From a virus (taxonomy: Duplodnaviria > Heunggongvirae > Uroviricota > Caudoviricetes), in the IMG/VR virus record IMGVR_UViG_2700989510_000026: a DNA stretch of 7,037 bases, one strand, 5' to 3'. The notes beneath the pieces were generated by a model. That model worked only from the letters and a program-made list of their open reading frames with translations, was not told the DNA's origin and did no database searches. The position numbers and the translations under genes were made by a program. Position 1 is the first letter of the stretch, and every line of letters starts with the position of its first letter. This document shows positions 5,934 to 6,140 of this stretch, piece by piece.

Positions 5934-6140
5934 TTAGTCTCCCCGTGCCGTCTTACGGCGGTCCTCCCTGATTTTGAAATACAGGTTAGTCAGATACGTC
6001 AGCAGGCCAAACAGCAGACTCCCCAGTACACCTATTGCCACCCACTGGGACGGAGAGACTTTGTCCAGCAGCTGCAGTAACCAGTATCCCGTCCCCACCG
6101 CTGACGTGGTGTATGACACACCCGTTGTGATTTTTTCCAT
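5934..6140 (-). CDS. S: Phage-21-type class II holin (pinholin, S21-like), 68 aa
   Basis: Translation from ATG at 6138-6140: [68 protein letters not shown], near-colinear with phage 21 S21 as recalled (two TMDs, the first Gly/Ala/Ser-rich and SAR-like, C-terminal ...[11 protein letters not shown]). GGAG about 11-14 nt upstream. The ORF-track start at 6209 would add 23 residues and overlaps a terminator hairpin, so the internal Met is preferred. Confidence 0.8.

Follow-up and report, generated by a model that had tools for sequence, protein, structure and literature searches.

An intact S21-type pinholin gene, probably a passive relic, in a deletion-pared lambdoid prophage of Escherichia coli

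The DNA considered here is a 7,037-nucleotide stretch of a caudoviral IMG/VR record (IMGVR_UViG_2700989510_000026), referred to below as the window, and it raises the question of how an apparently intact pinholin gene comes to stand in a prophage without the SAR endolysin and spanins that belong to its lysis cassette. A preliminary description, made from the letters of the sequence, had pointed to this orphaned gene and had left its meaning between a toxin-like or abortive-infection element and a remnant that has not yet decayed. Comparison with phage 21, with the lysis cassettes of related prophages and with the genomes from which the locus derives indicates that the gene is very probably an ordinary and recent relic, orphaned passively and left behind in a lambdoid prophage gutted by deletion. 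Holin relics of cryptic prophages are known already, and the locus is one of them, here in a lineage-specific deletion state; nothing about it points to a new function.

Identity and integrity of the holin gene

The open reading frame at 5934-6140 runs on the minus strand for 68 codons, from ATG to TAA, with no frameshift. Its product matches the Pfam profile PF04971 ('Bacteriophage P21 holin S') at E=1.4e-32 with 111.9 bits (cut-off 26), covering positions 1-63 of 64, and matches holin families in PHROGs (E=6e-39 and E=6e-31), far more strongly than chance would allow; in TCDB the family is the P21 holin S family. Comparison was made with the curated genome of phage 21, in which the S21-71 antiholin and the S21-68 pinholin are annotated as dual-start products; against S21-68 the window holin aligns without gaps, with 51 of 68 residues identical (75%). 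The holins EssQ and EssD, which belong to the defective prophages Qin and DLP12 of E. coli K-12, are likewise members of the S21 family, with 75% identity over 71 aligned columns.

In a five-way alignment of the window holin with S21, K-12 EssQ, K-12 EssD and the holin of a Stx1a phage, the residues that form the small-residue face of TMD2 (G40, G43, S44 and G48 in S21-71 numbering) are invariant. Pang et al. reportedly described the role of this TMD2 glycine face in 2009. The N-terminal acidic-Lys pair (E2/K3), the aromatic patch YW(L/F)LQ(L/W), the loop DxVSPSQ and K56, which follows TMD2, are invariant or conservatively kept in the same alignment, and a mutational and electrophysiological study of S21-68 (bioRxiv 10.1101/2021.04.20.440580) has given functions to three of these elements, K3, the aromatic patch and K56. 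The window holin and S21 also have a charged C-terminal tail in common. Judged by composition only, TMD1 (19 residues) is weakly hydrophobic, with a Kyte-Doolittle value of 0.71 and 47% Gly, Ala, Ser or Thr (0.45 and 53% in S21), and TMD2 (23 residues) is strongly hydrophobic, at 1.59 (1.50 in S21); the layout of a SAR-like TMD1 followed by a hydrophobic TMD2 is therefore the same composition pattern in both proteins.

Taken together, the family profile, the gapless alignment with S21, the conserved residues and the transmembrane pattern indicate that, at the level of sequence, 5934-6140 is a genuine and undamaged gene of the S21-type pinholin family, and one that is probably still functional. 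The intact 68-aa pinholin reported in the preliminary description thus stands, with its TMD2 residues kept and with a TMD1 whose composition has the SAR character expected from S21.

Deletions and the missing lysis partners

No lysozyme or spanin domain was detected by Pfam in the eight main ORFs of the window, and tblastn searches with two SAR endolysins, two Rz proteins and Rz1 returned nothing meaningful in the window or in the 10 kb on either side of it in two source genomes (source loci L004 and L006). An endolysin or spanin gene lying just beyond the window is ruled out by the same flanking searches, and the absence of endolysin and Rz/Rz1 noted in the preliminary description holds over this wider range. 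In phage 21, the SAR endolysin gene starts at the stop codon of the holin gene and is followed by Rz/Rz1 (i-spanin and o-spanin), whereas all three are deleted in the window.

The junctions were mapped by blastn and junction alignments against two E. coli DEC9B prophages. Segments that match these prophages at 90-99.8% identity follow one another to make up the window; every segment stands at 99.2-99.8% except a 289-bp fragment of J (90%), and five deletion junctions lie within 3.3 kb, each with 1-3 bp of microhomology (Table 1).

Table 1. Positions of genes, gene fragments, deletion junctions and leader elements in the window, with the basis of each assignment
Feature	Position	Strand	Basis or extent
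nleC 5' end (zinc metalloprotease effector)	1..167	-	translation; nleC annotation in L002; Peptidase_M85 gene follows in source loci
790-aa effector, pentapeptide repeats and SopA/NleL-like HECT-type E3 ligase domain, cargo	421..2793	-	Pfam SopA_C, SopA, Pentapeptide; RefSeq annotation
NleG-family type III effector, cargo	2843..3433	-	Pfam T3SS_NleG, E=4e-36; RefSeq annotation of matching loci
Side tail fibre (stf) N-terminal fragment, cut at 3716-3718	3677..4006	-	Pfam phage_tail_N
Deletion junction	3716-3718		about 1.2 kb lost inside side tail fibre genes
lom C-terminal half, joined to J fragment at 4359-4360	4071..4358	-	Pfam Ail_Lom, profile 105-199/199
Chimeric ORF, large terminase 23-233 fused to tail-tip protein J	4345..5307	-	Pfam GpA_ATPase and FNIII-A_GpJ; blastn, tblastn
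Deletion junction	4359-4360		about 3.2 kb lost between lom and J
Deletion junction	4646-4647		lost from inside J back to terminase codon 233
Truncated DUF1327/YdfR-family ORF, 226 aa	5249..5929	-	Pfam PF07041, E=3e-39; phrog_1085
Deletion junction orphaning the holin	5274..5276	.	blastn against DEC9B prophage L001; 3 bp microhomology; about 3.43 kb lost
Class II holin (pinholin), S21 family, intact 68 aa	5934..6140, stop included	-	ORF listing, Pfam, PHROG, S21-68 alignment
GGAG Shine-Dalgarno-like motif	6152..6155	-	read from sequence, 11 nt 5' of ATG
Terminator-like hairpin, 11-bp stem and T-run	6185..6221	-	pattern scan; ends 55 nt before ATG
nanS-p part (SASA-family sialate O-acetylesterase), runs off window	6433..7037	-	Pfam SASA; blastn against 616-aa L001 gene
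Deletion junction	6484		924 bp lost, in frame, inside nanS-p

The junction at 5274-5276 is the one that separates the holin from its partners. Window positions 5274-6484 correspond to 6001-7211 of the DEC9B prophage L001 at 99.8% identity and window positions 4646-5276 to 1942-2572 of the same prophage at 99.2%, and the intervening L001 segment encodes lysozyme, Rz and Nu1. One end of the deletion lies inside the DUF1327 gene, directly downstream of the holin, and the other at codon 23 of the gene for the large terminase. In DEC9B coordinates, the lost segment comprises the last third of a 329-aa DUF1327 ORF, a 177-aa lysozyme, a 45-aa ORF and Rz, followed by a 45-aa hypothetical gene, a YlcI/YnfO-family gene, Nu1 (the small terminase subunit) and the first 22 codons of the large terminase. 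The 177-aa lysozyme of DEC9B is a homologue of the phage 21 SAR endolysin (R21; E=3e-23) and carries an Ala/Gly-rich N-terminal segment and an E-x8-D-x5-T triad. On this mapping, a deletion of about 3.4 kb took the SAR endolysin, Rz/Rz1 and Nu1, and the holin is an orphan because that deletion removed its lysis partners.

The truncated DUF1327 protein left beside the holin consists of residues 1-218 of the 329-aa protein, which is encoded at full length in DEC9B (L001 5667-6656), and of eight final residues derived from the junction. The family is phrog_1085, whose function is given as unknown in PHROGs, and the best result of a PDB sequence search was a chance match (E=0.4). The position of DUF1327 between pinholin and SAR endolysin nevertheless suggests a role in lysis. 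The Qin prophage (essQ-ydfR-rrrQ-rzpQ/rzoQ) has the same arrangement, with the DUF1327 gene ydfR directly after the holin gene and with a neighbourhood of hokD, rem, DUF968 and Q that matches the source locus of the window; YdfR, however, has 103 aa and covers approximately the first 103 aa of the family protein, compared with the 329-aa ORF of the window's allele. Both Qin and DLP12 (essD-rrrD-rzpD/rzoD) have kept lysozyme and spanin genes as well as an MKSM dual start, whereas the cassette in the window is cut after the N-terminal part of DUF1327.

The remaining junctions affect packaging, tail and flanking genes. Terminase and J are fused at 4646-4647, where the J part is an internal FNIII-A fragment, and the resulting chimera is no functional gene. 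The late-operon order left in the window is nanS-p', holin, truncated DUF1327, terminase-J fusion, half of lom, the N-terminal part of stf, and then the genes for NleG, the NleL-like protein and NleC. At least five microhomology deletions have cut a lambdoid prophage down to its type III effector cargo, in agreement with the earlier label of a dead prophage. Incomplete prophages preferentially lose lysis, lysin, terminase and portal genes (PMC7744054), and the window locus shows exactly this pattern of loss. The locus offers a clean and fully mapped example of how lambdoid prophages of attaching/effacing E. coli are pared by microhomology, with the genes for lysis, packaging and morphogenesis lost and the type III effector cargo kept.

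Two further features of the remnant concern its flanks. Upstream, the nanS-p gene encodes 616 aa in relatives and a product of 308 aa as called in the source genomes, the 924-bp loss being exactly in frame; the shortened product still has the N-terminal DUF1737 domain and, of the SASA domain, a part that now runs directly into the last 16 or so residues. Downstream, the three effector genes that directly follow the five deletions (those for NleG, the NleL-like E3 ligase and NleC) are untouched, and as a result of the deletions no more than about 7 kb separates these genes from the Q-dependent late promoter region, on the same strand.

The holin allele, its leader and its transcription

E. coli prophages very often carry this exact 68-aa holin, for which the collection index lists 2916 blocks. 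Each of the ten distinct contexts listed (10/10) has Phage_lysozyme, Phage_lysis (Rz), Nu1 and GpA downstream of the identical holin. An ORF for DUF1327 lies between holin and lysozyme in these ten contexts: six have it called whole, two have it split, and it is partly called in one context and uncalled in another. Strain CD45 carries a near-complete relative of the prophage, in which holin, lysozyme, Rz, Nu1, large terminase, portal and capsid genes follow one another in the usual order. The holin of the window is also 91-100% identical at the amino acid level to those of Stx-converting phages (H-19B, Stx1a_2342 and the 933W type), reaching 100% in Stx1a_2342, and in these phages too it lies downstream of nanS-p; they differ from the window in having complete lysis and morphogenesis modules.

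The leader of the gene carries a terminator-like hairpin (minus strand, 6221-6195) with an 11-bp stem of which seven pairs are G-C, followed by TTTTGTTTT, with 55 nt between its end and the holin ATG. The terminator of its own that the preliminary description assigned to the gene is thus present as a pattern. The same description credited the gene with a good ribosome-binding site; a GGAG motif does lie at 6155-6152, but its spacing of 11 nt from the ATG is long, if usable. A third statement about the leader, that a second Met at position 4 is missing, proved to be the reverse of what the alignment gives. The codons that lead into the holin ATG read ATA CAT CAG ATG in the window and ATG AAA TCA ATG in phage 21, so that the window holin starts at the equivalent of S21 Met4 and what it lacks is the upstream antiholin Met1, from which phage 21 makes S21-71; no 71-aa antiholin form can be produced. 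The dual start is dispensable for pinholin activity, as S21-68 alone forms pores (bioRxiv 10.1101/2021.04.20.440580).

These properties are shared with complete cassettes. Over the 110-nt leader, including the hairpin, the GGAG motif and ATA CAT CAG ATG, the window differs at 0-1 positions from ten intact cassettes, and the leader region is also common to H-19B and YYZ-2008, whereas Stx1a_2342 has a different leader and keeps the dual start (ATG TAC CAG ATG). Because the leader is nearly identical in intact cassettes, the terminator, the geometry of the ribosome-binding site and the missing antiholin start are properties of the cassette allele, and neither adaptations of an orphan nor signs of decay. 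As far as protein and leader sequences tell, the orphan copy of the holin is unremarkable, matching intact cassettes in both.

A consensus-based scan, which is weak, found no sigma-70-like site on the coding (minus) strand between 5200 and 7037. In the source locus, four terminator-like hairpins lie on the coding strand between Q and the holin gene, and Q itself is intact upstream, encoding a full-length protein of 273 aa in three source loci (L004-L006). The terminator-like hairpin in the leader probably prevents expression of the holin by any RNA polymerase that lacks the Q modification.

Two Rfam matches were obtained in the window at E<=1, to ST7-AS1_2 (a eukaryotic lncRNA) and to DicF (E=0.8); neither lies in the holin leader, and both score well below the gathering threshold and are rejected as chance. 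A second strong terminator-like hairpin is found on the plus strand at 6396-6432, antisense to the late operon, with an 11-bp stem containing eight G-C pairs followed by T7. It abuts the nanS-p stop codon and has no T-run when read on the coding strand, and no plus-strand ORF, promoter-like site or Rfam family accompanies it.

Explanations for the orphaned gene

Antitermination by Q at pR', the release of TMD1 from the membrane and the formation of heptameric pores by TMD2 are established features of lambda and phage 21 biology. By this scheme, the window holin would be transcribed only as part of the late transcript from pR', once Q had made RNA polymerase resistant to terminators, including the hairpin 55 nt upstream of the gene. 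The protein would then accumulate in the inner membrane, where TMD1 would flip out of the membrane and TMD2 would assemble into small heptameric pores, collapsing the proton motive force; pores of the pinholin type depolarise the membrane and let no cytoplasmic endolysin out. In the absence of a SAR endolysin and spanins in cis, the predicted outcome would be growth arrest or death without lysis, and lysis would follow only if another prophage supplied endolysin and spanins in trans. S21-68 by itself makes pores, and the cells stay structurally intact (bioRxiv 10.1101/2021.04.20.440580; review PMC9636201). In an uninduced cell the holin gene is most likely silent and would therefore carry no cost, which could allow it to persist after its partners are gone. 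The deletions were most likely retained because they disarm the prophage, and the holin may have survived because both flanking deletions ended before it and point mutations have had too little time to build up.

The deletion lineage can be traced by the truncated 226-aa DUF1327 protein, which is specific to the 5274-5276 junction and is indexed in 37 collection blocks. Of the contigs that carry it, 24 were read and ten loci were retrieved, on contigs of up to 5.4 Mb; these ten loci match the window at 99.89-100% identity, along its entire length wherever the contig extends far enough. The deletion lineage shows 0-7 substitutions per genome over 7 kb, or about 22 in approximately 53 kb of alignment. 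All ten copies of the holin are identical in DNA sequence, whereas about 0.9 substitutions would be expected under neutrality in the pooled 2.07 kb of this near-clonal lineage. Because the lineage is nearly clonal (at least 99.89% identical) and zero changes against an expectation of about 0.9 are unremarkable, the intact ORF says nothing about selection. The holin and the N-terminal domain of DUF1327 lie between two deletions that both stop short of them, which is compatible with chance and could reflect selection. In a PADLOC search (E<=0.001), no defence model was matched by the holin or by the truncated DUF1327.

The choice left by the preliminary description, between a toxin-like or abortive-infection element and a remnant, can accordingly be narrowed. 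The remnant is favoured because the deletion that orphaned the gene has been mapped, the allele is identical in intact cassettes, the lineage is clonal, and neither a PADLOC match nor a promoter-like site of its own on the coding strand was found for the holin. No observation directly contradicts this reading, and the toxin or abortive-infection idea finds no support.

A use for the gene as a spare part for co-resident lambdoid prophages is unlikely, although it fares best among the alternatives. Q provided in trans might express the holin, add to the pool of pinholin and shift the timing of lysis, or the locus might act as a recombination donor for lysis cassettes. The identical allele occurs in the 2916 blocks mentioned above, and in complete E. 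coli genomes that carry any segment of the region, such segments occur a median of five and up to 35 times per genome, so that trans-activation and homologous exchange have ample room; Q and the terminator structure are also retained. Such effects would, however, be incidental rather than a function, and a redundant identical copy offers little reason for selection. As a practical matter, pinholin relics could still be trans-activated by co-resident Stx-type phages.

Orphan holins of this type are found elsewhere, and their architecture bears on whether they are kept for a purpose. S21-type holins were surveyed in one genome per species, giving 69 loci, 66 of them with a full-length holin ORF, and three of these 66 have no recognisable lysozyme within 6 kb downstream. 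The three orphans are in E. coli ECMA0423 (L050, 6001-9400), Shigella flexneri SFBU1023 (L052) and Dryocola sp. BD626 (L058, 5995-7500). They resemble the window in combining a full-length holin ORF with the lack of a lysozyme gene over that distance, and differ from it in carrying other holin alleles. In the two that were inspected (ECMA0423 and BD626), IS66-family or IS3-family elements directly follow the holin, so that an insertion with truncation after the holin takes the place of the microhomology deletion mapped in the window. Since three of 66 surveyed holins are orphans and the events differ, IS insertion in one case and microhomology deletion in the other, orphan pinholins arise repeatedly, through differing accidents. 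In genome annotation, an intact holin gene is no evidence that a prophage is lysis-competent, and a lethal membrane protein can stay intact for a time because it lies silent behind Q-dependent terminators.

This variety also weighs against a selected, non-lytic suicide or abortive-infection module, in which Q from a superinfecting or co-resident lambdoid phage would read through to the holin; we regard such a module as highly improbable. It would act through an early collapse of the proton motive force before the invader matures, with death or arrest of the cell and, endolysin and spanins being absent, no release of phage, a sequence of events to which we give very little credence. Every residue of known importance in S21 is intact, as is the ORF itself, the allele lacks an antiholin start, a state that would favour triggering at an early stage, the remnant keeps a full-length Q (273 aa) and the late-operon architecture, a Septu defence system lies in the same element, and two flanking deletions spare the holin. 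Against this, holin, leader and single start are identical in complete cassettes (with 0-1 differences in the leader), so that nothing is adapted to the orphan state; PADLOC gave no match; with about 0.9 holin changes expected, none observed and 0-7 substitutions across the 7 kb, a test for selection is powerless; and the other inspected orphan S21-type holins were made by IS insertion and have no common architecture. That the pinholin, the N-terminal domain of DUF1327 and the remnant's own Q work together as a Q-triggered, non-lytic depolarisation switch limiting the spread of phage is a correspondingly slim prospect; such a switch would be set off by the infection or induction of a lambdoid phage with a matching Q, and early, since the allele makes no antiholin form.

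The host lineage is attaching/effacing-type E. coli, and the prophage is lambdoid and related to Qin and Stx phages. In the source genomes, the element adjoins yodB-like, zinT and msrQP genes, and its gene order is Septu-hok-rem-DUF968-rusA-Q-terB'-DUF3927-nanS-p'-holin-fragments-nleG-nleL-like-nleC-IS66. The arrangement of the window is present in at least five independent NCBI assemblies at 99.89-99.99% identity, on contigs of 84 kb, 212 kb, 294 kb and 5.4 Mb, and no complete RefSeq E. coli genome contains at least 80% of the window in one place. An assembly artefact, in which a mis-join among similar prophages had produced the orphan arrangement and the true locus kept its endolysin, is effectively refuted, for although five junctions in 3.3 kb are unusual and no complete RefSeq E. 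coli genome has more than 80% of the window together, every junction recurs in those independent assemblies, including the 5.4-Mb contig, and the junctions share 1-3 bp rather than long repeats prone to mis-joining.

The Septu system of the element lies about 6-8 kb upstream of the holin (1866-3861 of source locus L006) and consists of a PtuA ATPase (PADLOC E=1e-165) and a PtuB HNH nuclease (E=1e-83); its genes adjoin a DUF5677 gene and hok, inside the prophage remnant. Single-base indels are present in some members of the deletion lineage (window 3068-3078; source loci L003, L009 and L012). The terminase-J fusion ORF is split in L012, and L003 lacks calls for the fusion ORF, the lom fragment and NleG; these indels fit an ongoing neutral decay of the fragments.
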